Source of the DNA: a virus
Lineage: Duplodnaviria > Heunggongvirae > Uroviricota > Caudoviricetes
IMG/VR virus record: IMGVR_UViG_3300010355_001317
Span: 64,001-75,554 of that record
Direction: 5' to 3' (one strand)
Length of the DNA stretch: 11,554 bases
Below the pieces are notes generated by a model. That model was not told where the DNA came from, did no database searches, and was given only the letters and a program-made list of their open reading frames with translations. Positions 1 through 11,554 of this stretch are shown here, piece after piece; position 1 is the stretch's first letter; the number at the start of each line of letters is the position of its first letter. Both the position numbers and the translations under genes were made by a program.

Positions 1-278
1 CTCCTAAAGCCTCATGCTATTGTTCAGGCAAATAGCAAGGATTTATCGACAACTAAGTGGTACTCCCGTTAGTCCGTCAGTCAGTCAATTAAGGGCTTTC
101 AATGGGTGTGACAACCCCTTGCAAAGTTATCCCTAACTACTACCACCGATGTCCGGTTTTGAACTCGCCCAAAGTTCCTTTCCAATTTACTTCCATCAAG
201 GAATATAAATAAGAAGGCATGGTAACATAGCTGTCGTCCCCTTGCCTCAAATGCAAGGGGAATGGTGTAAAAGAACAG
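1..278 (-). ncRNA. Putative structured non-coding RNA or long 5' leader (family unidentified; may continue left of the window)
   Basis: About 44% GC (hand count, 1-270) against an AT-rich background, with no credible ORF. Seven helices can be drawn by hand on the minus strand, several containing G-U pairs. An AGGAG at 5..1 may be the RBS of a gene starting just outside the window. Confidence 0.5.
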
Positions 279-360: not shown

Positions 361-579
361 TTATCGTCTTATTATTCTTATATAACCTTCTCTAAGAAAT
401 TGTCTAAAAGTAGTAGTATATACAGATTGATTTGCCCTATCGTTAGATATTTCTATCCAGATATTATCATGTAAATGATCATCTACGTGTCTAACTCTAA
501 CTTCATATTCTCCTTCATTTAAATCGCAGTTACAATCGTTTTCTTTTCCTTTTATTTCTTTTATAACTTGTATAATCAT
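361..579 (-). CDS. Hypothetical protein, family F1 (72 aa)
   Basis: N-terminus MIIQVI and C-terminus FRQFLREGYIRII match the F1 motif. It starts 2 nt after the upstream stop. Confidence 0.85.
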   Translation of the reverse strand: MIIQVIKEIKGKENDCNCDLNEGEYEVRVRHVDDHLHDNIWIEISNDRANQSVYTTTFRQFLREGYIRIIRR

Positions 580-581
580 AA

Positions 582-875
582 TTAGTTCTTCATTATTTTG
601 TTAAAATTATCTGCCGTGATCCAGCAATCTTTACCATGTTGTTCTTTAGCTAGTAAAAAGATATAAGTTGCATGAGCTAGAGTACTTTTATCTACTTCTT
701 TCTCAAGAAACTTTCTTTGATTTCTTAAGCCGCATTTAGCTAGTTTACTATCTGAATATTTCATAGCACAGAGTTCTGATCTACATGAAGAACCGGGTTC
801 ACCACAAAATAAGTCCCTACCTTCTGAAACCCAGTTTAATGCAATTCTAATTTTATTGTAAAGATTTGTATCCAT
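582..875 (-). CDS. Cys-rich hypothetical protein, family F2 (97 aa)
   Basis: IRIALN, CGEPGSSC-x4-C-x11-C and WITADNF are shared with the two adjacent paralogs. Confidence 0.85.
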   Translation of the reverse strand: MDTNLYNKIRIALNWVSEGRDLFCGEPGSSCRSELCAMKYSDSKLAKCGLRNQRKFLEKEVDKSTLAHATYIFLLAKEQHGKDCWITADNFNKIMKN

Positions 876-877
876 AG

Positions 878-1192
878 TTAAATATCACTATTAATAATCT
901 TAGATTTAAATTCTTTTGCTGTAATCCATAGTTCATGGTCTGTTGAAAAGAATTCTTTCTTTATCCCATATAACTTAAGAAATCTTATTGTTAGTTCTCG
1001 TAATTCTTTTTTATTTGATAACTGATTCAAATAGTGTTCTGCACTTGCTTTACGTAATAGACAAGAAGCTCGTTGGCGGCGAAAGTTACATCTATATGCA
1101 GTACAATTTTCTCCTGGTTCATAGCACTGATCATCTCTTTGACAAGCAAGTGCGTTTAGAGCTATTCGAATAGTGTTTAGTTTCTTTTTCAT
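878..1192 (-). CDS. Cys-rich hypothetical protein, family F2 (104 aa)
   Basis: IRIALN, CYEPGENC-x4-C-x8-C and WITAKEF. ATGA overlap with the upstream gene. Confidence 0.85.
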   Translation of the reverse strand: MKKKLNTIRIALNALACQRDDQCYEPGENCTAYRCNFRRQRASCLLRKASAEHYLNQLSNKKELRELTIRFLKLYGIKKEFFSTDHELWITAKEFKSKIINSDI

Positions 1193-1485
1193 ATTCCTAG
1201 TAATTCAAATTCAGCAACCCAGTAATCTTTTAATCCAGAATGTTTTTGTAATACCTGTAAATATTTAAAGGTAACTTTAAATAAATCTTCTTTAGAAATA
1301 CTTTCTAAATATTGTATTATGTTTCTTCTGGAAACAGTAGAACAAATTGAAATAAAAGCGCAAGTATTGCTACTACAAGAATCACCGGGTTCTATACACA
1401 CACATGTTCTTTCTGAATTTCTATTAACAGAATACGATAATAAATTAAGAGCAATTCGAATAGAATTTTTAGTTTTATTATTCAT
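1189..1485 (-). CDS. Cys-rich hypothetical protein, family F2 (98 aa)
   Basis: IRIALN, CIEPGDSC-x4-C-x5-C and YWVAEF. 1-nt overlap with the upstream stop. Confidence 0.85.
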   Translation of the reverse strand: MNNKTKNSIRIALNLLSYSVNRNSERTCVCIEPGDSCSSNTCAFISICSTVSRRNIIQYLESISKEDLFKVTFKYLQVLQKHSGLKDYWVAEFELLGI

Positions 1486-1769
1486 TATTTTATTCTTGTA
1501 ATTGTATAATATCTCCTATTTTGAATTAGCTTAACATATCCTATTTTATCCATCATGAGCAAGAATCTCTTCCATCTATCGGAATATTCTGTAATTGTAT
1601 TTTGCCTATAACACTCTTTAGTATATTTTTTATGACAATCTATAAGAAGAGAATCTGTATGGATAAGGTTTTTAAGTTCGTTTGAAGTATACGCTCTTCC
1701 AATCTCCATTTTTGAGGCAAGAAATATAGCAAGCATCTTTCTATATTTTTCTCGATCTATATGTGACAT
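1485..1769 (-). CDS. Hypothetical basic protein, possible winged-helix DNA-binding protein (94 aa)
   Basis: Fits the operon packing. The pattern GRAYTSNEL...FLLMMDKIGYVKLIQNRRYYTITR resembles a winged helix plus wing hairpin (inference only). Confidence 0.75.
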   Translation of the reverse strand: MSHIDREKYRKMLAIFLASKMEIGRAYTSNELKNLIHTDSLLIDCHKKYTKECYRQNTITEYSDRWKRFLLMMDKIGYVKLIQNRRYYTITRIK

Positions 1770-1771
1770 AA

Positions 1772-2026
1772 TTACCCCTCTATTATTTTACAAATTCCTT
1801 GTCTTAAATATTCTTTAAATCTCTTAGGAGAAAGAGCTCTACTTCTGGAATAGTCTTCTTCTTCATCTAACATTAAGCAATTATACACAGAAGATTTAGC
1901 TGATCCAGGATTGTGTTGTCTATACTCAGGGTTCTTTTCATTCCAAATACTAACTATATATATAACACCCTTTCGAATATGATTGTTTTTTTCAGATTTA
2001 ATATTTTCTGTAAATATAATTTTCAT
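1772..2026 (-). CDS. Hypothetical protein, family F1 (84 aa; alternative start at 2038)
   Basis: MKIIFT start matches the family N-terminus. C-terminus FKEYLRQGICKII. Confidence 0.85.
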   Translation of the reverse strand: MKIIFTENIKSEKNNHIRKGVIYIVSIWNEKNPEYRQHNPGSAKSSVYNCLMLDEEEDYSRSRALSPKRFKEYLRQGICKIIEG

Positions 2027-2030
2027 ATTA

Positions 2031-2120
2031 TTAATCATTCCTGTTTCTATAGAAGATAGAAAGAAAAATCATAAGGATTACTGCTAAACCAAGATCCAAT
2101 AATTCTCTAATCTTTTTCAT
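2031..2120 (-). CDS. Small membrane peptide MKKIRELLDLGLAVILMIFLSIFYRNRND (29 aa, not in ORF track)
   Basis: AAGGAG RBS upstream of the ATG at 2120, one hydrophobic segment, and it fills the gap between genes. Confidence 0.6.
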   Translation of the reverse strand: MKKIRELLDLGLAVILMIFLSIFYRNRND

Positions 2121-2161
2121 AGTAGCTCTCCTTATTATTTTCAAGTTCATTAAGAACGAAT

Positions 2162-2425
2162 TTATTCTTCAATTCTTATATAGCCGTATCTCAATAATAG
2201 TCTGAAATCATATTCTGTTATATCCTGATGATAACAAGCTCTATCTTCTGTATCAGTTAATCTAAGTAACTCTTTTCCTTTACATGGTGGGATACAACTT
2301 TTATCTACTGTCTTATATAAAACTCTTATTTTATAAGTTTTATCTTTATCAAAACAACACTGATAATCAAAACCAAGATTAGCAGATTTTTGAAAAGATA
2401 AATTTTCTAAAAATTTAACTATCAT
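2162..2425 (-). CDS. Hypothetical protein, family F1 (87 aa)
   Basis: MIVKFL...FRLLLRYGYIRIEE. The start overlaps the upstream gene end, with an AAGGA RBS. Confidence 0.85.
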   Translation of the reverse strand: MIVKFLENLSFQKSANLGFDYQCCFDKDKTYKIRVLYKTVDKSCIPPCKGKELLRLTDTEDRACYHQDITEYDFRLLLRYGYIRIEE

Positions 2426-2657
2426 ATTCCTTTATAATTTTAAAGTATCCTTTTCTGTACCAGTCTCGAAAATTTTTAATAGATATAAATCTACCCTTAT
2501 TAGTATCAGAAAAAATATACAAATTACCTATCATGTTTTTATTACCAGATTTTTCAAAGTCCTCTTCTGTCCAAATAGTAACTTTATAATATCCTTGTGT
2601 TTCGATAGGACCATCTAATAGACTGCGAAGATCTTGTTTAAGAAATTTTATTTTCAT
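2415..2657 (-). CDS. Hypothetical protein, family F1 (80 aa)
   Basis: MKIKFL...FRDWYRKGYFKII. Confidence 0.85.
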   Translation of the reverse strand: MKIKFLKQDLRSLLDGPIETQGYYKVTIWTEEDFEKSGNKNMIGNLYIFSDTNKGRFISIKNFRDWYRKGYFKIIKEYDS

Positions 2658-2660
2658 AGA

Positions 2661-2879
2661 TTAATAACATTCGATAGTATCGTAGCATCCATAGATATTA
2701 CAATAGGTATTATGATAGCAGCAAGTAGCATTGATACAATATTCTAATATCTGATGCTCCAGTTGATATTGTAAAAGATTAAAAAGAATATAATCTTTAT
2801 TGCAACATGGATCTTGATAGTGATAACATCCTGTTAACACTATAAAAACAAAAGAAATAATTACTATAAGTTTTTTCAT
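2661..2879 (-). CDS. Small Cys-rich predicted lipoprotein (72 aa)
   Basis: Start re-placed at the ATG at 2879, 2 nt after the upstream stop. Signal peptide MKKLIVIISFVFIVLTG-C18 with a lipobox. Eight further Cys in the mature part. Confidence 0.75.
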   Translation of the reverse strand: MKKLIVIISFVFIVLTGCYHYQDPCCNKDYILFNLLQYQLEHQILEYCINATCCYHNTYCNIYGCYDTIECY

Positions 2880-2881
2880 AT

Positions 2882-3568
2882 TTACCATCCAAAAAATTCT
2901 GCATACATATTCATAACCTTTTGACAATCTATGATAGAAGGATGCTCAAACTGAAGATTTTCTGGCACAGTTCTAACAAACTCAGCAATTGTTTCTTCTG
3001 GGTACATCATAATGCTGGAGCTATCAAAAGGATATTTTTCTATATCATAAAATATTGGTTTTTTTGGTACAAACTGATATTGAATAATTGCTGGTAATAC
3101 CTTTATATAATCAGTATCAAAATCTAAATATAAAGAAGCATCTATTCTTTGAAATTCATGTATATCTAAACCTATTATATGTCCTAATTCATGACAAAAA
3201 CCACCTACAGAAATTTCTTTATAAGATACATCTACAAACATTTGCATATTTGTATACTGTTTGTATCCATTAATGCTTGATGCTAGAGGTGCTCCTTCGA
3301 CAAAACCGTTTGGAAGACCTATTATTCTGAGAACTCTATCTTCGTCATCCAGCGATCTTCCAGTAACATTATCAAAATAAATAACACCGTTAGTAAGAGT
3401 ATTCCACATGCACATTGCCATTACAAGATTCTTTGTTTGTGCAGGCGGCAAGGGACTTACAAACATAAAAGGAATTCTTCCTTGATTCCAAAGATAGGGA
3501 TCTTTATCAGTTGCACAACCTATGAAAATAAAAGAAAGAAGTATTATGATAAATCCTAGCTTTTTCAT
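2882..3568 (-). CDS. Predicted lipoprotein, astacin-like (peptidase M12A-type metzincin) zinc metalloprotease (228 aa)
   Basis: Lipobox IFIG-C18. HELGHIIGLDIHEFQRID resembles the astacin motif HExxHxxGFxHExxRxD. Met-turn-like FDSSSIMMYP. AGGAG RBS. Confidence 0.8.
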   Translation of the reverse strand: MKKLGFIIILLSFIFIGCATDKDPYLWNQGRIPFMFVSPLPPAQTKNLVMAMCMWNTLTNGVIYFDNVTGRSLDDEDRVLRIIGLPNGFVEGAPLASSINGYKQYTNMQMFVDVSYKEISVGGFCHELGHIIGLDIHEFQRIDASLYLDFDTDYIKVLPAIIQYQFVPKKPIFYDIEKYPFDSSSIMMYPEETIAEFVRTVPENLQFEHPSIIDCQKVMNMYAEFFGW

Positions 3569-3595
3569 ATTGAAGATCTCCTTTTAATATTATAG

Positions 3596-3667
3596 TTATC
3601 CTTTAGTAAAAATCCAAATAAAACCTGAAACAAGAAACACAATAAAAAATATTTGAAGAATAATCAT
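3596..3667 (-). CDS. Small membrane peptide MIILQIFFIVFLVSGFIWIFTKG (23 aa, not in ORF track)
   Basis: AAGGAG RBS, ATGA overlap with the upstream micro-ORF, and almost entirely hydrophobic. Confidence 0.55.
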   Translation of the reverse strand: MIILQIFFIVFLVSGFIWIFTKG

Positions 3668-3792
3668 TTCGATTTCTCCTTTTTATCTCTTTTGTTAATT
3701 CTTTCTCTATCTTTAAATCCAAGATAGTATCCAGAAAAAAAGATACAAAGTGCCCCACATAATATAAGAAATACAATTGGTATTGAATTCAT
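3664..3792 (-). CDS. Small membrane protein MNSIPIVFLILCGALCIFFSGYYLGFKDRERINKRDKKEKSK (42 aa, not in ORF track)
   Basis: ATGA overlaps at both ends. One transmembrane segment followed by a basic tail. Confidence 0.65.
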   Translation of the reverse strand: MNSIPIVFLILCGALCIFFSGYYLGFKDRERINKRDKKEKSK

Positions 3793-4016
3793 ACTTCACT
3801 TCCTTTTTCGTCTAGAATAATTAAATCACCTGTTCGTAGATAATAACGAAATTCTTCTGCTGTTATGGTGTAATAATCTGTATCAGTATATAGACGAATA
3901 TTTTTTCCAGATAAAAGAGTATCCTTTTTAACTTCCAAAACTTCAGGATCATCTTTATCATAGACAAAATCACCATGATAAGATCTAAAAAAATCTGTAG
4001 TTCGTTTTACTTTCAT
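3789..4016 (-). CDS. Hypothetical protein, family F1 (75 aa)
   Basis: MKVKRT...TAEEFRYYLRTGDLIIL. Confidence 0.85.
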   Translation of the reverse strand: MKVKRTTDFFRSYHGDFVYDKDDPEVLEVKKDTLLSGKNIRLYTDTDYYTITAEEFRYYLRTGDLIILDEKGSEV

Positions 4017-4265
4017 TTACTCACTCACAATAACAAAAATTCCTTTTCTAAGATAAGAACGAAACTCTTCTTTAGTAAAATACTTTACACGAAAATTACC
4101 ATATTTACCATATTCTATCGGAATATGTAATGTTACTATATCGCATTTTGTGCTTTCTGAATACTCCTTTCCAATAGTAACTAGTGTTCCTTCTTTATAG
4201 TAACCTTCTATTGAGAAGTCACCGAATATTGATTCAAATTCTGTATCTTTAATAATAATCTTCAT
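4017..4265 (-). CDS. Hypothetical protein, family F1 (82 aa)
   Basis: MKIIIK...TKEEFRSYLRKGIFVIV. Confidence 0.85.
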   Translation of the reverse strand: MKIIIKDTEFESIFGDFSIEGYYKEGTLVTIGKEYSESTKCDIVTLHIPIEYGKYGNFRVKYFTKEEFRSYLRKGIFVIVSE

Positions 4266-4627
4266 TATTCTTTTCCTTGTTTAGAGAAAGATAATTCTTT
4301 TCCTTCTCGAGCTTGCATCATGAATTCTGCTTCCATAAACTTCAAATGCGAACGAAATTCAAGCACTTGATTTATAGTAGGTTTTTCTATTCCATACTCA
4401 ATTTTAAAAATTGCAAGAATATCTTCCATAGGAAAGTTACAATGCATCGCAAACTCATCTGTAAGAGTCTTTGTGGCAGTATGCAATCTCATTGAAGCAG
4501 ATTCAGAACTCTTTTCTCTCGGTTGAAAGTTTTTATACTCTTCTTCGTCGCCACAAGATTTGCAGATTCCTTCCTCGTATGGAACAAAGACATGAACGCA
4601 ATCTATACATTGTTTAGTTTCTTTCAT
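4265..4627 (-). CDS. Hypothetical protein with N-terminal CxxC...CxxC putative zinc finger (120 aa)
   Basis: CIDC-x11-CKSC at residues 7-25. ATGA overlap with the upstream gene. Confidence 0.8.
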   Translation of the reverse strand: MKETKQCIDCVHVFVPYEEGICKSCGDEEEYKNFQPREKSSESASMRLHTATKTLTDEFAMHCNFPMEDILAIFKIEYGIEKPTINQVLEFRSHLKFMEAEFMMQAREGKELSFSKQGKE

Positions 4628-4827
4628 AATTCTAACTCCTTTCTCCAGATAGTTGCTTTTCTCTTTGCAGCAGAAAGAGTTAAAGCAGATTGTATTTCTT
4701 TTGTATCCCCTTTATAACAAGCGATGTTATAAAAAAGAGAATTTTCTATATGGGAGATAGTGAATAACCCATTATCCCATTCTTCTAAATCACCTATTTT
4801 GCTATATGTCCAATCTCTACGTTGCAT
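4624..4827 (-). CDS. Hypothetical protein (67 aa, MQRRDWTYSK...)
   Basis: Start re-placed at 4827, with an AGGAGG RBS and 1 nt after the upstream stop. Confidence 0.75.
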   Translation of the reverse strand: MQRRDWTYSKIGDLEEWDNGLFTISHIENSLFYNIACYKGDTKEIQSALTLSAAKRKATIWRKELEL

Positions 4828-4828
4828 G

Positions 4829-5041
4829 TTATTCCTCCTTACACAACTCATCACGAAACATCTTTTCGATTCTGTCTTCATATGCTTGGTAGTATTGATT
4901 ATGAAATACATCTTTAAAGCTCAGTTCTCCACGAAGGCGACGAAGCATCTTTAACCAATCGTTAACTGTCATACCTGGAGAAACCAGAATACATTTGTTG
5001 GAAATACTTTCAAGTTTATTAATAGCATCAGTTACTATCAT
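4829..5041 (-). CDS. Hypothetical protein (70 aa)
   Basis: AGGAG RBS and fits the operon packing. No motif recognised. Confidence 0.75.
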   Translation of the reverse strand: MIVTDAINKLESISNKCILVSPGMTVNDWLKMLRRLRGELSFKDVFHNQYYQAYEDRIEKMFRDELCKEE

Positions 5042-5043
5042 AT

Positions 5044-5292
5044 CTATTCTCCTTTTGTTATAATAACTAAAGTTCCATCAAGAATATATCTTTTAAATTC
5101 TTCTGGCAAAATTAACCAACCCGTATCACCATGTTCACCTTCTTCACACAAACTAATTCGTTTATGTTTTCCTGTTAAATGTGGTGCCGGTGAAGTCTGA
5201 TAAAAATATTCAACTCTAAATATAGTACCTGGCTGCCTAGCAAAGGAACCACATTCAGAATAGATTTCACCAATTGTATTATATACTTTCAT
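5044..5292 (-). CDS. Hypothetical protein, family F1 (82 aa)
   Basis: C-terminus GWLILPEEFKRYILDGTLVII (LDGT subtype). Confidence 0.85.
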   Translation of the reverse strand: MKVYNTIGEIYSECGSFARQPGTIFRVEYFYQTSPAPHLTGKHKRISLCEEGEHGDTGWLILPEEFKRYILDGTLVIITKGE

Positions 5293-5503
5293 CTTCCTGT
5301 ATTATTATAAGAGATTGTTCTCTTAATGCTTTTCTGAATTCATCTTTACGCATACGATATATAGTTGTGAGTGTTTTTATATGAATAAGACTGGTGGTTG
5401 AAATCGTAATAGTTCCTTCCTCACCGTGCATTTTAAACGAACCATATGAAGTGCAAGTTATTAATCTATTGTCTTTATTCCCTTTTACTCTCATAGTTAG
5501 CAT
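5279..5503 (-). CDS. Hypothetical protein, divergent F1 member (74 aa; alternative start at 5494)
   Basis: Start moved to avoid the long overlap with 5497..5718. C-terminus KDEFRKALREQSLIII (G replaced by Q). Confidence 0.75.
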   Translation of the reverse strand: MLTMRVKGNKDNRLITCTSYGSFKMHGEEGTITISTTSLIHIKTLTTIYRMRKDEFRKALREQSLIIIQEDESI

Positions 5504-5718
5504 ATCGATTGAGAAGTAAGTACTACTTCGAATCTGTCTTCTGGACAATAAGCAAAAGTGCCACATTCATCAACAAGAATAAGAGAACCATCTTCTTGTA
5601 AAGCAAACCCTTCCATGTCACAATAAATAAGATTCTTTGCCCATTCTTCTTTAAGAGCTATCTCATAAGTATCTGCTTCTTTTCCTGTAAGCTTATCTAT
5701 AACATGGAAAGTAATCAT
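5497..5718 (-). CDS. Phage-type hypothetical protein, possibly YopX-like (73 aa)
   Basis: AGGAG RBS. The pattern F-x-V-x-D-x2-TG...D-x-EGF...DG-x-L-x-L-x-D...RFEV recalls YopX-like phage proteins (from recall, unverified). Confidence 0.8.
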   Translation of the reverse strand: MITFHVIDKLTGKEADTYEIALKEEWAKNLIYCDMEGFALQEDGSLILVDECGTFAYCPEDRFEVVLTSQSIC

Positions 5719-5750
5719 TTGATTCTCCTATATATACTTATAGTTATTTT

Positions 5751-6020
5751 CTAGCTATTTTGGTTTAAAACAATTTGTTCTTCATCATTAACAAAAAGAA
5801 ACACATTCTCTTTTAAAAACTGTTTTGCTAGACGCACTTTATCCTCAGCTGTTATGTCATATCCCATACATATCTTATGACCCTTATACTTAAACATTTT
5901 TTCACAAACTTTACAAGAACAGTATGTACATGACCCACCTAGATCTATGATAGTTAAAAGTATTTCTTTTGGATCAGTTATTTCTCTTGGACTTGTTACT
6001 CTTCTATTTCTTGAAGACAT
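5751..6020 (-). CDS. Cys-cluster hypothetical protein, family F3 (89 aa)
   Basis: CTYCSCKVC-x11-C and tail DEEQIVLNQNS. AAGGA RBS before the ATG at 6020. Confidence 0.85.
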   Translation of the reverse strand: MSSRNRRVTSPREITDPKEILLTIIDLGGSCTYCSCKVCEKMFKYKGHKICMGYDITAEDKVRLAKQFLKENVFLFVNDEEQIVLNQNS

Positions 6021-6036
6021 GATTAACATCCTTTGT

Positions 6037-6264
6037 CTAGTTAGTTTGATTTAGAATAATTTGTTCCTCATCTGAGGAAGTAAGCATTGAATTAGATAAA
6101 AGCTTCTTAGCTTTTTCAACTAATATTTTACTATGTCCTATATCATAACAAAGCTTCTTCTCCCCTTCTCCGAAAGCATTATAGCAGTTTCCACAACCGA
6201 TATAATTGCATGAGTTTTTCTCTACTATCTCATCAAGTATCTCTTTCTGTTTTTTAGTAAGCAT
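6037..6264 (-). CDS. Cys-cluster hypothetical protein, family F3 (75 aa)
   Basis: CNYIGCGNC-x11-C and tail DEEQIILNQTN. AAGGAG RBS before the ATG at 6264. Confidence 0.85.
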   Translation of the reverse strand: MLTKKQKEILDEIVEKNSCNYIGCGNCYNAFGEGEKKLCYDIGHSKILVEKAKKLLSNSMLTSSDEEQIILNQTN

Positions 6265-6275
6265 ATTAAAACTCC

Positions 6276-6617
6276 TTATTGTATTTCTTTGAATATTCGA
6301 GTTAAAACCCTTCTGCATGTCTTAAACTTCTTTTCTTCTTCTTTAGAAACTCGAGAACCTCTTGCACCATAAGCAATGTTATATATAAGCTCGAGAGCAT
6401 CATATTCTTTCTTAGTCATTATTTTCTCAACTTTAGTATCTCGAAGATCAGCAGTGTCATAGGATGATTCAAAAAATAATAACTCTTGTATAACTTCATC
6501 ATCATACAGCTGATCAACATCGCATACATCGAATAGCATAGATCTTGCTTTATTAAATTCTTTTTCGTCTTGTATAGTAAGTTTAAAAACCTTCTTTCTC
6601 TTTGCCATTGTTTTCAT
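6276..6617 (-). CDS. Hypothetical helical protein (113 aa; alternative start at 6608)
   Basis: AAGGA RBS. Charged, helix-like composition. No family recognised. Confidence 0.75.
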   Translation of the reverse strand: MKTMAKRKKVFKLTIQDEKEFNKARSMLFDVCDVDQLYDDEVIQELLFFESSYDTADLRDTKVEKIMTKKEYDALELIYNIAYGARGSRVSKEEEKKFKTCRRVLTRIFKEIQ

Positions 6618-6652
6618 CCTTCTTTCAGTTTTTCAGTGTGACCGAATTTCTT

Positions 6653-7054
6653 TCAGATTATTTCGCTTTCATGAAACTCTGAATCAAGAACATTCTTACA
6701 CTTAGAACAAATGTAAAGATGTTCTCCAGGAAAACCAGAAACCCATTCTCCTTCTTGGCAACCACATTCACAAGAAGGAGGAGTATGCATGGTTTCATCT
6801 ACTTCAGAAAGAAACTCAGAAAGAGTAATGGTATGATTAAACCTATCAGCAAAAGCAATAGTAATATTATCATAACCATATGTCTTTGAAGAACCAATAA
6901 TCATCTCTTCTCTGAGGCCGAGATGAATTACAATGTCTTCTCCTTTATGAGTAAAAGAATATTCTGTATATCCATAAGGATCATGCTTAGGACCTTCTGT
7001 ACCAGTAGTAATAGATACTGTACCAATATTAATAAGAGTTAGATTCTTTTCCAT
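6653..7054 (-). CDS. Hypothetical protein with C-terminal putative zinc ribbon (133 aa)
   Basis: AGGAGG RBS. CECG...CSKC near the C-terminus. Confidence 0.8.
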   Translation of the reverse strand: MEKNLTLINIGTVSITTGTEGPKHDPYGYTEYSFTHKGEDIVIHLGLREEMIIGSSKTYGYDNITIAFADRFNHTITLSEFLSEVDETMHTPPSCECGCQEGEWVSGFPGEHLYICSKCKNVLDSEFHESEII

Positions 7055-7080
7055 TTACATTCCTCCTATTCTTAATTAAA

Positions 7081-7245
7081 TTACATAACCATATTAATAT
7101 CATAGAGAGTACCCATATACTGCTCATATGCAGACTTACCAAGATAACCATTTTGATAAAGTATAGTTATCTTATCTTTAGCTTCAGGATAAGTAAGTTT
7201 ATCAGCAATGAAGTCATTAAGAATATCTCTTACTTGAATAGACAT
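7081..7245 (-). CDS. Hypothetical protein MSIQVRDILNDFIADKLTYPEAKDKITILYQNGYLGKSAYEQYMGTLYDINMVM (54 aa, not in ORF track)
   Basis: AAGGAG RBS. Starts 3 nt after the upstream stop and fills the gap. Confidence 0.7.
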   Translation of the reverse strand: MSIQVRDILNDFIADKLTYPEAKDKITILYQNGYLGKSAYEQYMGTLYDINMVM

Positions 7246-7248
7246 AAT

Positions 7249-7497
7249 TTAAATCTCCTTTGGATCAACTATTTTGATAGTACCATCTAAAAGAAACTTT
7301 CTAAATTTCTCCTTAGATAGAAAATAACCATCACGCCCTCCAACCCTTGAAACCACAAGCATATTAGATTGCATAGAACGTTCTCTGTGCGTCATGTAGT
7401 TTCTATGATTCTTCCAGAGCAAAATCTGCTTATTTGCATACTCTGTTCTTTGAACTCCATCTTCATCCCGAAAAGTTTTTGTAAATTTTATTATCAT
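7249..7497 (-). CDS. Hypothetical protein, family F1, LDGT subtype (82 aa)
   Basis: MIIKFT, DEDG, LWKNHRNY and FRKFLLDGTIKIV. Close paralog of 9753..10019. Confidence 0.85.
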   Translation of the reverse strand: MIIKFTKTFRDEDGVQRTEYANKQILLWKNHRNYMTHRERSMQSNMLVVSRVGGRDGYFLSKEKFRKFLLDGTIKIVDPKEI

Positions 7498-7523
7498 AGC
7501 ATCCTTTGGTTACTATAAGTGAA

Positions 7524-7566
7524 TTAAGTATGTACTCACTATATAAGATAGAGAGTACATAGTTAA
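7524..7566. other. Intergenic imperfect inverted repeat (possible terminator, processing site or operator)
   Basis: TATGTACTC (7529-7537) pairs with GAGTACATA (7553-7561), with further inner and outer pairs. No clean U-tract. Confidence 0.4.
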
Positions 7567-7567
7567 A

Positions 7568-7999
7568 TTACTTATAAGTAATATTATTGTTCTCATCGAC
7601 AGCAAAGTGACAATGATACTTATCCGAAGATGTGTAATCTCCAGGAGTAAGTACTTTAAGATATTCTTGGGTACCGAGGCAATCACTCTTATAATAAGCA
7701 ACAAGAGTACTATCAGGCAATCGAATAAGCACTTCTCCATCTGTATTACCGCAGACATGAATAACCTCTATGGAAGCATCATTACCATCTTCTCCATCCT
7801 GACCATCTTCTCCGTTATAAATAGTAACCGTCTGATCCCCGCACTTGAGAGTATAACCATCCTGAATCTTTGTTGCTTTACATTGCTCCATCTGAATGAT
7901 TGGAAGAAGCACTTGCTTCTCCTCTGCATCGCAGGCAAAGAAAAGAAAACTCAGATTCATCAAAAGCATGAGAGAAAGAATAGATAAAGTAAACTTCAT
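7568..7999 (-). CDS. Predicted lipoprotein or exported protein with a short collagen-like (G-x-D)4 segment (143 aa)
   Basis: AAGGAG RBS before the ATG at 7999. Hydrophobic signal ending FFA-C23. GEDGQDGEDGND encoded at 7778-7813. Four further Cys. Confidence 0.8.
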   Translation of the reverse strand: MKFTLSILSLMLLMNLSFLFFACDAEEKQVLLPIIQMEQCKATKIQDGYTLKCGDQTVTIYNGEDGQDGEDGNDASIEVIHVCGNTDGEVLIRLPDSTLVAYYKSDCLGTQEYLKVLTPGDYTSSDKYHCHFAVDENNNITYK

Positions 8000-8066
8000 A
8001 AAGCACTCCTTTTGTATAGTAGTATAAAAGACCAATCTTTAGATAAGATAAAGACAATAGAAAGTC

Positions 8067-8123
8067 TATATACTTATAGTTATTTTCAAGGTAACTTGAT
8101 TTAGAAAGAATTTGTTGCTCATC
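8067..8123 (-). pseudogene. Frameshifted relic of an F3 C-terminal tail plus downstream intergenic sequence
   Basis: 48 of 57 aligned positions are identical to 5731-5786. Removing one T gives the reading DEQQILLNQ. Confidence 0.5.
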
Positions 8124-8128
8124 CTTCT

Positions 8129-8341
8129 TCATGGTATAATAGTTATGATTCCTTCTCTAAGCCATTTTCTTAGATATTCAGGACCAGCAGTAAATGCAAA
8201 AGTTATTCTTATATCCTCGGGTGTAAATCTAAGTAAGAACCATTCCTTATCATTTACAGTTTGCGTTGTAGCACTAACTTTCCATACCCCACAAACTACC
8301 TCAGCTTCAATACGATAAGGTTTATTAAATTGTATTTTCAT
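8129..8341 (-). CDS. Hypothetical protein, family F1 (70 aa)
   Basis: MKIQFN...YLRKWLREGIITII (F replaced by L). Confidence 0.8.
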   Translation of the reverse strand: MKIQFNKPYRIEAEVVCGVWKVSATTQTVNDKEWFLLRFTPEDIRITFAFTAGPEYLRKWLREGIITIIP

Positions 8342-8353
8342 AATATTTATCTT

Positions 8354-8602
8354 TTAGTTAGATTGATTAAGAATTATCTGATCTGCATCAGCAAGGATAC
8401 ATATACCAACAGAAGAACTAGCAAGTTCAGCTAATCTTCTTTTTGCAGTATGCAATCTAGAACGTCGATCTTTTGCAATACATTCACATAAAGGTCTATC
8501 AAATAAAGCAGCAAGACAATGAGTGCAGCTAATGTTTCTACAATCACCCTCTTGTATGATAAACTTTGTAAGTATTTCTATCTTCTCTTCTTTTGAAAGC
8601 AT
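8354..8602 (-). CDS. Cys-cluster hypothetical protein, family F3 (82 aa)
   Basis: Start re-placed at MLSKEEKIE to match the paralog MISKEKKIE. CRNISCTHC-x9-C and tail DADQIILNQSN. Confidence 0.85.
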   Translation of the reverse strand: MLSKEEKIEILTKFIIQEGDCRNISCTHCLAALFDRPLCECIAKDRRSRLHTAKRRLAELASSSVGICILADADQIILNQSN

Positions 8603-8615
8603 ATAGCATATTCCT

Positions 8616-8846
8616 TTAGATATAAAGAATAGTATCAATAATAGATAACTTCTTGAGTTTAAAAGCTTTACCAAGGTGTTCATCAAAGGAACATCCTAAT
8701 ATAGTTTCTAACTTCTTAAGCTTAGAAGAAGAAAGAATATAAGCATCTCTCTTCTTGAAAGAATAAGCAGTATTGGGATTCTCAACATCAAAGTTCTTGC
8801 AAAAGTATCCTTTATTGCAGGTGATAAAGTAATAAGTATTCCTCAT
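8616..8846 (-). CDS. Hypothetical protein (76 aa)
   Basis: Fits the packing between two F3 genes. No family recognised. Confidence 0.7.
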   Translation of the reverse strand: MRNTYYFITCNKGYFCKNFDVENPNTAYSFKKRDAYILSSSKLKKLETILGCSFDEHLGKAFKLKKLSIIDTILYI

Positions 8847-8858
8847 AGTATTTCTCTT

Positions 8859-9101
8859 TTAGATAGATTGATTAAGAATGATAGGTGCTTCCTCATTATC
8901 AAAAGAGATAGAACCAGTGAGTTCAGCTAATCTCTTCTCAGCTAATTCCAGCCTACGAGAATGATACTTTTCTTTACAAGGACCAGGACGATCCTCATTG
9001 AATAGAGCAGGAAAACAGTGGAAACAATCAATACCGAGACATGCACCCTTTTGCTTAATGATATTTTTAAGCGTTTCTATTTTCTTTTCTTTTGAAATCA
9101 T
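8859..9101 (-). CDS. Cys-cluster hypothetical protein, family F3 (80 aa)
   Basis: CLGIDCFHC-x12-C, RLAEL and tail EEAPIILNQSI. Confidence 0.85.
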   Translation of the reverse strand: MISKEKKIETLKNIIKQKGACLGIDCFHCFPALFNEDRPGPCKEKYHSRRLELAEKRLAELTGSISFDNEEAPIILNQSI

Positions 9102-9107
9102 AAGTAA

Positions 9108-9416
9108 TTACTTCCTTTTAGCTAGAATTAAAATTGATTTGATAAGTTCTTCAGGAGTATGATACTTAAGCAAAACATTTAACTCATCTTCAAGATTAAG
9201 ATAATCTCTCTCTTCGAAGTAATCAAGATCACCCCATGCCCACATATATTCCGGATCAGGACTATCATAAAAAGAAGCACTAGGTCCACCTGCTTTCTTA
9301 CATTTATGCCAGTTACCATCTAACATGAAGTCCATTTCACCGTCTTCGTTCCATTCCTGTGATCTTTCAGAAAGAGAACATTTATAATATCTACCTGCTA
9401 CAAATCTTGTAATCAT
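9108..9416 (-). CDS. Hypothetical protein (102 aa)
   Basis: AAGG RBS and fits the operon packing. Trp/Asp-rich N-terminal part with a helical C-terminus. Confidence 0.75.
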   Translation of the reverse strand: MITRFVAGRYYKCSLSERSQEWNEDGEMDFMLDGNWHKCKKAGGPSASFYDSPDPEYMWAWGDLDYFEERDYLNLEDELNVLLKYHTPEELIKSILILAKRK

Positions 9417-9431
9417 ACCTTTGTCTTTCCT

Positions 9432-9521
9432 TTATCTTATATAAGTAGATATATGAGCAGACTTAAGAGTAAAGATAATGATAAGAATAGAACAAAAGAG
9501 AATACCAATGAGATAAATCAT
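9432..9521 (-). CDS. Small membrane peptide MIYLIGILFCSILIIIFTLKSAHISTYIR (29 aa, not in ORF track)
   Basis: Fills the gap between genes and has a single hydrophobic segment. The RBS is weak. Confidence 0.5.
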   Translation of the reverse strand: MIYLIGILFCSILIIIFTLKSAHISTYIR

Positions 9522-9531
9522 ATATTAGTAC

Positions 9532-9756
9532 CTATTCCTTTTCTAGAGCTATAAGACCTGTTCGTATAGATAATCTAAAATCAGAATCATTGACAAACAT
9601 TGTTGGGGCATCAGCAGTTATAGGATCAAGCTGTATAATATCACCATTCTTCTTCTTAAAGATAGAAACAGAATATTTAATTCCCTTCTTAATACGAGGA
9701 GCAGTTTCATGCCCAGGATTAGTATTCTTATAATCACGAAGAAAGATAACTATCAT
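9532..9756 (-). CDS. Hypothetical protein, family F1 (74 aa)
   Basis: MIVIFL...DFRLSIRTGLIALE. ATGA overlap with the upstream gene. Confidence 0.8.
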   Translation of the reverse strand: MIVIFLRDYKNTNPGHETAPRIKKGIKYSVSIFKKKNGDIIQLDPITADAPTMFVNDSDFRLSIRTGLIALEKE

Positions 9757-10019
9757 ATTGAATCACCTTGAGTAAGAATGATAATAGTACCATCCAAAAC
9801 AAACTTCCTAAATCTAGTAATAGAAAGAAACCATCCAGCAAATTTAGTATCAGGATAAGGACGACCAATAATAAGCATATCCTGTTGTCCATGACGACGA
9901 TGAGTGACAGAGTGATAGTTAGGATGATCCTTCCAAAGAAAGACCAACCATATCTTCTTTAAATCATCTCTATTATAACCATCTTCGTCTTTAATAGGTG
10001 AAGTGAATCTTATTTGCAT
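9753..10019 (-). CDS. Hypothetical protein, family F1, LDGT subtype (88 aa)
   Basis: MQIRFT, DEDG, LWKDHPNY and FRKFVLDGTIIIL. Confidence 0.85.
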   Translation of the reverse strand: MQIRFTSPIKDEDGYNRDDLKKIWLVFLWKDHPNYHSVTHRRHGQQDMLIIGRPYPDTKFAGWFLSITRFRKFVLDGTIIILTQGDSI

Positions 10020-10177
10020 AAGTTAGTACCATGACAGATAGGACATCTTTTAGAATAGAAAGGAATGATAAGAATCCAAACACCAGAAGTAAAGAGACAG
10101 AGAATAAGAGTACCTATTCCAATCTTTCTATGAGGATGAACTCTTTGATTACAATTAGAACAAAATTTAGTAGACAT
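10010..10177 (-). CDS. LITAF-like zinc-ribbon membrane peptide MSTKFCSNCNQRVHPHRKIGIGTLILCLFTSGVWILIIPFYSKRCPICHGTNLCK (55 aa, not in ORF track)
   Basis: AAGGAG RBS. CxxC and CPxC knuckles flank a ~22-residue hydrophobic segment. It overlaps the next start codon. Confidence 0.75.
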   Translation of the reverse strand: MSTKFCSNCNQRVHPHRKIGIGTLILCLFTSGVWILIIPFYSKRCPICHGTNLCK

Positions 10178-10197
10178 AGTACTAAGAATCTCCTTAA

Positions 10198-10608
10198 TTA
10201 CTCTTCAATAAAAGCACCTAATAATTCTAGACCAGATTTGAGTAGTAAAGCATTTTCTATATTAGAAGATTTAATTGATAGCAAATATTGTGAGAATATA
10301 TAATTAAGAAAATCTACATATTCCCTCTGAACAAAAGAAAAAGTATTTCTAGGGGTAGCTTTTATTAACTCAAAGCAAGTGGAATGATAAGTATCCCTAT
10401 AATCACCAATAGATAAAGTATAGATTGTATAAGGTTCAGAACTTAAATCAACAGATTTAATGTAACCAATATCATTTATCTTAGGAAGAGAAGTATTTCT
10501 TTTAGATTTATCACATTCCCAAAGAGTAGCTTGTGATAAAGAAGTTATCTTAACAAGATCACCAGTTCTAAAAGCTTTATACTTATATTCATCATAGTTA
10601 AGATGCAT
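10198..10608 (-). CDS. Hypothetical protein, N-terminal half possibly an SH3/KOW-like barrel (136 aa)
   Basis: FRTGDLVKIT...IGYIKSVD...YTIY...FELI pattern (inference). AAGG RBS. Confidence 0.8.
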   Translation of the reverse strand: MHLNYDEYKYKAFRTGDLVKITSLSQATLWECDKSKRNTSLPKINDIGYIKSVDLSSEPYTIYTLSIGDYRDTYHSTCFELIKATPRNTFSFVQREYVDFLNYIFSQYLLSIKSSNIENALLLKSGLELLGAFIEE

Positions 10609-10772
10609 TATTCACCTTCTATGTGTTAGATATAGAACAAAGTAAGTTTGATTTATAATATATAACTTGATTAAGATTAATGAGTAGATTTACGCGATTT
10701 GGGCGTAGATGCGCCGTCTCCCGCATGCCCTACAACATTAAAACTTTACAAATTATTACCATCTATCCGAAT

Positions 10773-10946
10773 TTACTCATTCATCTTATCAAGACTATCG
10801 AGAATCATGAATCCTACAAGGAGAATTGCTTCTACGATGAATAGTGTCCTTCTTCCTTCAATAGTTATAGTAGTACTAATTAGATTTCCTATACTAAAAA
10901 CAAGAAGAAAGATGATTATAATACTTCTGTATATCTTGATTCTCAT
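10773..10946 (-). CDS. Small two-helix membrane protein (57 aa, MRIKIYRSIIII...)
   Basis: Start re-placed at 10946 behind an AAGGAG RBS. Two hydrophobic segments. Confidence 0.7.
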   Translation of the reverse strand: MRIKIYRSIIIIFLLVFSIGNLISTTITIEGRRTLFIVEAILLVGFMILDSLDKMNE

Positions 10947-10995
10947 TATAATCTCCTTATTTCTGCACGTTATTAAAAAAGCGTTGAATGATTCA

Positions 10996-11127
10996 TGGGC
11001 AAGAACCGCCATTTTCTCTTCTTCTTGACCTTCCACCAGGACCGAATTTCATATGTTTTCGGTCCTTTTTCTATGATTTTTAAAAGATAAAATGGTTATA
11101 CTTTGACTGGGCAAGAACCGCCATTTT
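10996..11127. repeat. Exact 20-bp direct repeat TGGGCAAGAACCGCCATTTT (10996-11015 and 11108-11127)
   Basis: Both copies were read directly and are 112 nt apart. Confidence 0.9.
11038..11070 (+). terminator. Possible intrinsic terminator for plus-strand (antisense) transcription
   Basis: AGGACCGAA pairs with TTCGGTCCT (9 bp, 11-nt loop), followed by TTTT on the plus strand only. Confidence 0.4.
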
Positions 11128-11316
11128 TTAATGAATAGATACTATAAGTTTTGCTTCTATCTTCTTGATCATCTCTCTCGTCTCTTCTACTACTTTCCAT
11201 TGTTCTTTGAAGAATTCTAGAGTAATCTGCTTCTTTGAAAGTTTATGAAGAAGACGATTCTCTACTTCTTTAAGACTTGACCTTAGTATTTGTATGTCTT
11301 GTTTTGTTGCTTTCAT
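11128..11316 (-). CDS. Hypothetical coiled-coil-like protein (62 aa)
   Basis: AAGGAG RBS. Heptad-like charged helical sequence. Confidence 0.75.
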   Translation of the reverse strand: MKATKQDIQILRSSLKEVENRLLHKLSKKQITLEFFKEQWKVVEETREMIKKIEAKLIVSIH

Positions 11317-11349
11317 TTATATCTTTCTCCTTTTCAGAAGTTTTGATTC

Positions 11350-11399
11350 AAAAAAAGTTGCTCCTTACTAAGAATTACGCTATCATCCTAGTAAGGAGC
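11350..11399 (-). terminator. Rho-independent terminator downstream of the tRNA
   Basis: GCTCCTTACTA pairs with TAGTAAGGAGC (11 bp, extendable with G-U pairs), followed by AACTTTTTTT on the minus strand. Confidence 0.75.
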
Positions 11400-11431
11400 T
11401 CACATGGAGTATTTAAGGGGGTTAAAGCATT

Positions 11432-11504
11432 CGTCCCGAGAAGGAATCGGACCTTCGACCGACTGCTTAGAAGGCAGTTGCTCTATCCACTGAGCTACCG
11501 GGAC
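11432..11504 (-). tRNA. tRNA-Arg (anticodon UCU), 73 nt, CCA not encoded
   Basis: Full cloverleaf: acceptor GTCCCGG/TCGGGAC, D stem GCTC/GAGC, anticodon arm ACTGC-CTTCTAA-GCAGT, T arm GAAGG-TCCGATT-CCTTC, discriminator G followed by AAT. Confidence 0.95.
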
Positions 11505-11546
11505 AAAGAACTAGTGGCTGACCCTTTTTATCAGATCAGCCACTAG
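11505..11546 (-). terminator. Hairpin immediately upstream of the tRNA (terminator-like or processing signal)
   Basis: CTAGTGGCTGA pairs with TCAGCCACTAG (11 bp, 14-nt loop), followed by TTCTTT and then the tRNA 5' end. Confidence 0.5.
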
Positions 11547-11554
11547 GTAAAACT

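Follow-up and report, generated by a model that had tools for sequence, protein, structure and literature searches.

Expansion of a family of small proteins with a predicted SH3-like fold in a jumbo phage lineage

Results

The DNA analyzed here, called the window throughout, is an 11,554-nucleotide stretch that forms the final 11.5 kb (positions 64,001 to 75,554) of the 75,554-bp virus record IMGVR_UViG_3300010355_001317 (Caudoviricetes; 30% GC; estimated completeness 32%), below referred to as the 75.5-kb contig. It carries twelve members of a family of small proteins that we term F1 and that is the subject of this work. Since window positions 1128-11554 are 100% identical to a stretch of a 237,933-bp metagenome contig, the source is a jumbo phage of ~238 kb. 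Sequencing runs containing DNA of this phage derive from anaerobic digesters, biofilm, wastewater and sludge and belong to several studies. Small genes, almost all on the minus strand, dominate the layout. The larger neighbors include an AAA ATPase with a VWA protein, a DHH protein, a peptide deformylase, a PolX-like gene, a radical SAM protein, two TnpB genes and an astacin-type lipoprotein. A host search via one TnpB found relatives in species genomes that were at most 57% identical and taxonomically mixed, the second TnpB had no relatives in species genomes, and searches with the SGNH, AAA and deformylase proteins were uninformative.

A first-pass annotation, made from the letters of the window, had grouped twelve open reading frames (ORFs) by a C-terminal motif, F-(R/K)-x2-(L/I/V/Y)-(R/L)-x-G-x-hydrophobic-x-(I/L), in which we count positions from the F. 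All twelve are present with their motifs on the minus strand, and their low (stop-side) coordinates were correct (Table 1). One start has to be revised: the member ending at 5279 most likely begins at 5494, the start of its strain-B orthologue, and not at 5566. For the member at 1772, the start called in L087 and P0010 is a possible alternative. Of the 113 minus-strand ORFs of 60-100 amino acids (aa) on the 75.5-kb contig, 17 carry a strict form of this motif within their last 30 residues, compared with a mean of 0.02 and a maximum of 1 in 1000 shuffles. Because this motif was defined post hoc, after inspection of the data, we added a leave-one-out profile. Indeed, this profile recovered each of the twelve members, with E-values from 3e-4 to 4e-14, while reversed sequences reached at best E 0.13 against a profile of 78 sequences. 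The weakest member, at 5279, has a Q in place of the motif G.

Iterated over the 75.5-kb contig, the profile search converged on 31 intact members, with a gap in E-value from <=2e-9 to 0.19. One additional copy is apparently truncated. The members cluster at 31.9-34.0 kb, 51.7-52.8 kb, 58.4-60.3 kb and in the window, with a singleton at 10.3 kb, and no core member was found in the 10 kb past the window. F1 accounts for ~1 gene in 7 of the 75-kb stretch (31 of ~214 minus-strand ORFs). Pairwise identity has a median of 23%; members 7249 and 9753 are 43-45% identical to each other. By inspection, F1 proteins contain no signal peptide and no membrane segment. Where two members share a motif residue, they use the same codon in 57% of cases (1487 of 2591), where the codon usage of the genome predicts 50% (1289), AGA being the dominant arginine codon. 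Since codon identity is near this expectation, the motif is conserved mainly as protein, as first proposed and in line with the selection data below. On the same ground, a DNA-repeat origin of the motif was rejected.

Table 1. Members of F1 in the window (E-values from the leave-one-out profile, identities from the orthologue comparison with strain B), followed by genes that carry a QIILNQ tail.
Feature	Coordinates	Strand	Length (aa)	E-value	Identity to strain B	Remarks
F1	361..579	-	72	8e-11	89%	pLDDT 88; predicted SH3-like barrel, helix 55-64
F1	1772..2038	-	88 (or 84 from 2026)	2e-13	94%	78% identity to P0010
F1	2162..2425	-	87	7e-9	97%
F1	2415..2657	-	80	5e-13	52%	middle swapped in relatives, both ends retained
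F1	3789..4016	-	75	2e-7	75%
F1	4017..4265	-	82	2e-7	67%	middle diverged in relatives, X12 joint 4091->4169
F1	5044..5292	-	82	5e-7	73%
F1	5279..5494	-	71	3e-4	85%	from ATG at 5494 (longest ORF to 5566)
F1	7249..7497	-	82	4e-14		L-W-x-x-H subfamily; 54% orthologue in L085; missing in two related strains
F1	8129..8341	-	70	3e-6		ESM Atlas pTM 0.78; 58% orthologue in L085
F1	9532..9756	-	74	1e-5
F1	9753..10019	-	88	5e-14		L-W-x-x-H subfamily; pLDDT 93, helix 67-75
QIILNQ-tail genes	window 5751-6029, 6037-6318, 8354-8686, 8859-9101
QIILNQ-tail genes	contig 54355, 60797, 61024, 61551, 62272, 63253
QIILNQ-tail genes	L008 1251, 4522, 5206; L085 2225

Searches of F1 in Pfam, PHROGs, PADLOC and PDB sequences gave no consistent match, and Foldseek against BFVD and PDB returned none at E <= 0.001. 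Neither tblastn of one member against cultured phages nor pattern scans of IMG/VR and JGI revealed relatives. F1 therefore has no match to a characterized family, a finding that might have overturned the first-pass annotation had it gone the other way. Relatives were obtained through protein look-ups. A profile search of 1.84 billion representative proteins yielded 61 matches, 59 of them family members; about half of the 61 come from the phage itself or its strains, almost all others are new members whose similarity runs from weak up to 47% identity, and two long proteins are apparently chance matches. The relatives that we traced sit in phage-like small-gene arrays on metagenome contigs, with 13 copies in 11.8 kb in a related phage (L008) and five in 3.9 kb in L005. 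Subfamilies such as that of 7249 and 9753 contain copies from different phages and the expansion is therefore old. We claim no order of duplications, because the deep branches of the tree lack resolution. F1 thus qualifies as a lineage-specific jumbo-phage expansion, with many paralogues in a genome of >200 kb and within one lineage.

We used AlphaFold2 models of two members that share only 21-23% sequence identity to compare their folds. The model of 361-579 (predicted local distance difference test, pLDDT, 88; predicted template modeling score, pTM, 0.74) places strands at residues 2-5, 23-31, 40-45 and 50-54, a helix at 55-64 and a last strand at 67-71. The model of 9753-10019 (pLDDT 93, pTM 0.82) has the identical order of elements. 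Both display the hallmarks of SH3-like folds, namely five strands, a long loop between strands 1 and 2, and first and last strands in the barrel. The short 3-10 turn that SH3 folds have between strands 4 and 5 is absent, and both models have an alpha helix of 9-10 residues instead. On the predicted structures, F1 is a variant of the SH3-like fold, a five-strand barrel in which a full helix takes the place of the 3-10 turn between strands 4 and 5. The conserved motif corresponds in both models to this helix and strand 5, and F1 members stop ~2-12 residues after strand 5. The predictions agree with the earlier proposal of a small beta-rich scaffold with its terminal strands in the barrel and a variable surface, and the folds of the modeled members do not diverge. 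ESM Atlas models of 361-579 and 8129-8341 are also confident (pTM 0.72 and 0.78) and have TP_0927 as a common structural neighbor.

The top 50 PDB neighbors of both models are mostly SH3-like, and FeoA, DUF1653 and SH3 domains are common to both. For 361-579 the first neighbors are CarD (Z 5.1), DUF1653 (Z 5.1) and FeoA (Z 5.0), with a root-mean-square deviation (rmsd) of 2.7 over 54 aligned positions for the best match. For 9753-10019 they are the SH3 domain of ZO-1 (Z 4.3; rmsd 4.0, 73 aligned) and FeoA (Z 3.9). FeoA, the C-terminal domain of DtxR/IdeR/ScaR, DUF1653, the N-terminal domain of CarD and eukaryotic SH3 domains share the F1-like five-strand topology and the long loop after strand 1 (Z 3-5), but they have the short 3-10 turn where F1 has its helix, their identity to F1 is 2-18%, and there is no sequence match. 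Sm/Hfq proteins possess an N-terminal helix before strand 1, whereas the F1 models begin directly with strand 1. The nearest predicted structures of two F1 members are the TP_0927 family (PF27440; template modeling score, TM, 0.55-0.59) and unnamed bacterial ESM Atlas clusters of 68-74 aa (TM up to 0.69); in both cases this is a model-to-model likeness only. A literature search found no paper that names TP0927.

Conservation in the alignment of 78 sequences falls on hydrophobic positions of the helix and of each of the five strands. The middles had been called almost unalignable, which was overstated, since strands 2 and 3 retain their hydrophobic pattern. The only conserved polar positions are a K near the start, an S/T before the helix, R/K at +1 (99%, 77/78) and +5 (83%), and the G at +7 (72%). 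No catalytic-type residue and no invariant acidic residue is conserved in this alignment. Most motif positions look like core packing, with buried and exposed positions read from the alignment pattern, but nowhere in the protein is there an invariant acidic partner for the two basic ones. We infer that the motif mainly closes the barrel as a structural lid, with +1 and +5 making up a single basic face of the helix.

A looser sister group of ~11-14 small genes (contig 31724-41563, 53858, 57868 and 60313; L086 4392-4604) has an apparently F1-like layout of a strand, a G-E/D-V turn, a late helix and a last strand, and lacks the basic pair. About 11 of these genes align to F1 over the helix and last strand only (HHalign probability 64%, 24 columns). 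The group was excluded from the F1 count of 31; it may lift the barrel total to ~45.

Strain B (loci L080, L083 and L084) is syntenic with much of the 75.5-kb contig and allowed us to follow F1 at strain level. Ratios of nonsynonymous to synonymous substitutions (dN/dS) were calculated from Nei-Gojobori counts pooled over genes, with bootstrap ranges in parentheses; because dS differs widely among genes, the strains are mosaic and the ratios are rough averages. The 25 F1 orthologue pairs have a median identity of 82%, a dS of 0.24 and a dN/dS of 0.51 (0.42-0.61), compared with 94%, 0.22 and 0.24 (0.19-0.29) for 45 other small genes (per-gene rank test, p 4e-5). Within F1, dN/dS is 0.55 in the middle and 0.30 in the strand 4-helix-strand 5 part. 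Likewise, 25% of the residues in the middle have changed, against 12% in the motif (Fisher p 4e-10), and the motif F and the +4 position are unchanged in 25/25 pairs. The astacin-type (PF01400) lipoprotein gene at window 2882-3568 has 100% identity to its strain-B counterpart, against 52-75% for the F1 genes nearby, which suggests a recent transfer or sweep of the lipoprotein gene.

Relatives also lack whole copies or carry replaced middles. The X11 and X12 contigs precisely lack 7249-7497 (joint 7248->7511, with 34 other bases instead). In X12, 2415-2657 has conserved ends, with 135 other bases in place of its middle (joint 2493->2626). L085, a more distant relative, carries two additional F1 copies, and 9532 and 9753 are missing there at the corresponding position. 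Thus, F1 genes are under purifying selection and individually retained, their loops evolve fast, and they have cassette-like mobility. The comparison of copy number and dN/dS in relatives, suggested at the outset, shows copies being gained and lost. The copies do not look like the interchangeable subunits once proposed, since each has an orthologue of its own in the other strain and there are subfamilies with members from different phages.

Discussion

We propose, with a probability of about 0.5, that F1 is a lineage-specific repertoire of intracellular binders or adaptors on one scaffold, in which each copy has its own target. A binding function, protein targets and early expression are what fold, anatomy, evolution and precedent would suggest. 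F1 would be a non-enzymatic cytoplasmic SH3-like miniprotein that was expanded in the accessory part of a jumbo phage genome. Strands 1, 4 and 5 and the amphipathic helix may form a fixed frame, in which the motif F, +3, +4, +9 and +11 would pack into the core and the G would terminate the helix. The variable long loop after strand 1, together with the loops around strands 2-3, is the putative binding surface. Many copies would have arisen by old duplications and been retained, each for a separate target; the targets would most likely be proteins of the host or the phage encountered in an infection (host takeover, counter-defense or host range). As single-gene cassettes, copies could be exchanged, gained and lost, and the repertoire might be useful under some hosts or conditions. 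The first-pass annotation had already considered a diversified binder or anti-defense repertoire. A binder repertoire would fit evolution that is fast and patchy, with copies gained and lost. Nothing points specifically to anti-defense.

Several points weigh against a repertoire of diversified binders. Structural Z-scores of 4-5 between predicted models and solved proteins mean a common fold only, and SH3-like barrels bind RNA and DNA too. Furthermore, dN/dS remains below 1 even in the middles (0.55), and relaxed constraint therefore accounts for the data as well as diversifying selection. Two other local groups of small genes have an equally raised dN/dS, namely the sister group (0.47) and six genes with a QIILNQ tail (0.53, pooled).

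The near-invariant basic positions lead to a possible, though clearly less probable, extension of the repertoire reading, with which it is compatible and to which it adds a common partner. F1 proteins could be two-faced adaptors, in which the basic helix face docks all copies on one shared machine (candidates are a protease, a chaperone, RNA polymerase or the ribosome, of host or phage) and the loops recruit clients or tune the machine; docking through the conserved helix had been considered in the first-pass annotation. Spaced i, i+4, the R/K residues at +1 and +5 lie on the same helix face, the family has no invariant acidic residue at other positions, and two of the three between-strain changes at +1 are R/K swaps. 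Moreover, the N-terminal domain of CarD, an RNA polymerase binder, is among the tied top matches of 361-579. This tie includes DUF1653 and FeoA, and CarD is outside the top 50 for 9753-10019, where only the related CdnL appears (Z 2.7). The arginine stems could also merely pack on a conserved aromatic residue of strand 2. One strain-B orthologue has Ile at +1 and another Gly at +5, and the sister group of ~11 genes retains the helix pattern without the basic pair. In its most specific form, which we judge quite unlikely, F1 would be a natural library of at least 30 two-faced adaptors for one machine, whose hypervariable loops, recombined between strains within conserved ends, pick the clients. 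If true, the phage would encode a programmable substrate-adaptor system.

The same basic helix face could instead contact nucleic acid, and F1 proteins would then be Sm/KOW-like RNA-binding regulators that act post-transcriptionally on phage mRNAs or structured RNAs. We regard this as unlikely. The genome has tRNAs and GC-rich non-coding segments, and there is a precedent in T4 GoF (ComC-alpha), which together with MotB.1 and Frd.2 forms an "LSm-like fold" family of Tevenvirinae (PMC12152347). The variant GoF(D25Y), of a similar fold class, stabilizes RNA, but wild-type GoF and MotB.1 have little effect on RNA (PMC12152347). In addition, the net charge of F1 members ranges from -4 to +8 and the isoelectric point from 4.9 to 10.0, with 10/31 members net negative. 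No Sm/Hfq chain occurs in the top 50 of either model, which is no exclusion.

GoF as well as MotB.1 and Frd.2 resemble F1 as small phage accessory proteins with dissimilar sequences and a five-strand barrel; the closest solved neighbors of this barrel are FeoA and IdeR-type domains, and its function is largely unknown (PMC12152347). FeoA, IdeR and ScaR are among the tied PDB matches of the F1 models (Z 3-5), and the T4 proteins are not named in the BFVD lists. The T4 family differs in having three copies instead of at least 31, and barrels that are followed by C-terminal domains, where the F1 barrels stand alone; the F1 helix motif is not described for it. The FRD2 profile PF03197 found nothing on the contig at E <= 10, and the 31 F1 members had no FRD2, ComC-alpha or FeoA match in Pfam at E <= 1.

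Expansion on a similar scale is known from Bacillus phage G with its ~35 zinc-ribbon copies (PMC7824862). Like F1, these are dozens of copies of a small domain in a jumbo phage with a function that is only inferred, but the fold is another one. The same jumbo-phage review reports no SH3-like expansion and mentions SH3 once (PMC7824862). Nip of Bacillus phage Phi3T has predicted SH3-like domains and acts in counter-defense by binding a host protein; unlike F1, it is a single-copy protein of 279 aa with two SH3-like domains and an HU-like domain (PMC11984713).

That F1 is near-neutral filler, a stable fold that tolerates mutation and was multiplied through recombination in a region built like a set of cassettes, with most copies doing little, would agree with the clean loss of a copy in abundant strains, the apparently truncated copy, the tight overlaps within tandem arrays and the slight excess of identical motif codons, but it is improbable given a dN/dS with an upper bound of 0.61, the unchanged F and +4 positions, old yet intact paralogues and subfamilies that recur in different phages.

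The family is uncatalogued; new here are the figures on its strain-level selection, the gene loss and middle replacement, and the near-invariant basic position. Selection, loss and replacement provide a measured case of SH3-like miniprotein expansion in large phages. With about one-seventh of the genes of the 75-kb stretch in F1, a fold for this one family annotates a large share of the lineage's dark matter. Should the copies be binders, the family would offer a ready panel for new targets in counter-defense or host takeover, as well as a small natural scaffold whose loops tolerate change.

Additional Features of the Locus

Two pairs of near-identical gene-junction sequences of 40-53 bp were found in the window, 5731-5770 with 8067-8106 and 8338-8390 with 8843-8895. 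A deletion in X12 (8390->8893) runs between the two members of one pair, consistent with cassette shuffling. An IS605 TnpB element (L004 ~1-1119; contig 55917-57119) lies elsewhere in strain B (L083 6912-8102), on the opposite side of the radical SAM gene, and this difference in position indicates that it has been mobile within the phage. At least ten genes with unrelated bodies (KOW/SH3-like, Cys-cluster and others) end in a common C-terminal tail made of acidic residues, QIILNQ, one or two residues and the stop. The tail recurs in related phages (Table 1) and looks like a portable address or docking tag.

Window positions 1-278 are GC-rich and non-coding and represent a candidate structured RNA, with no match in an Rfam search; the contig that covers them may belong to another organism. 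This is the sole non-tRNA part that is deeply covered in the RNA run (46.8 vs 2-3), and it is deep in X12 too. Coding parts are covered in the RNA run X19 by short contigs at a depth of 2-3, which may be DNA. Matches to sigma-70 promoters were not above shuffles (47 vs 58.7).

Directly past the window, where a long same-strand gene block begins, L086 encodes two related helical proteins of ~130 aa (7303-7695 and 9338-9742). Three tandem genes of ~100 aa at window 582-1485 have a common IRIALN start and a four-cysteine pattern and are 75-89% identical in strain B. Finally, window 11432-11546 holds a tRNA-Arg(TCT), which fits the dominant AGA codon, and a terminator-like 14-bp hairpin at 11511-11546.

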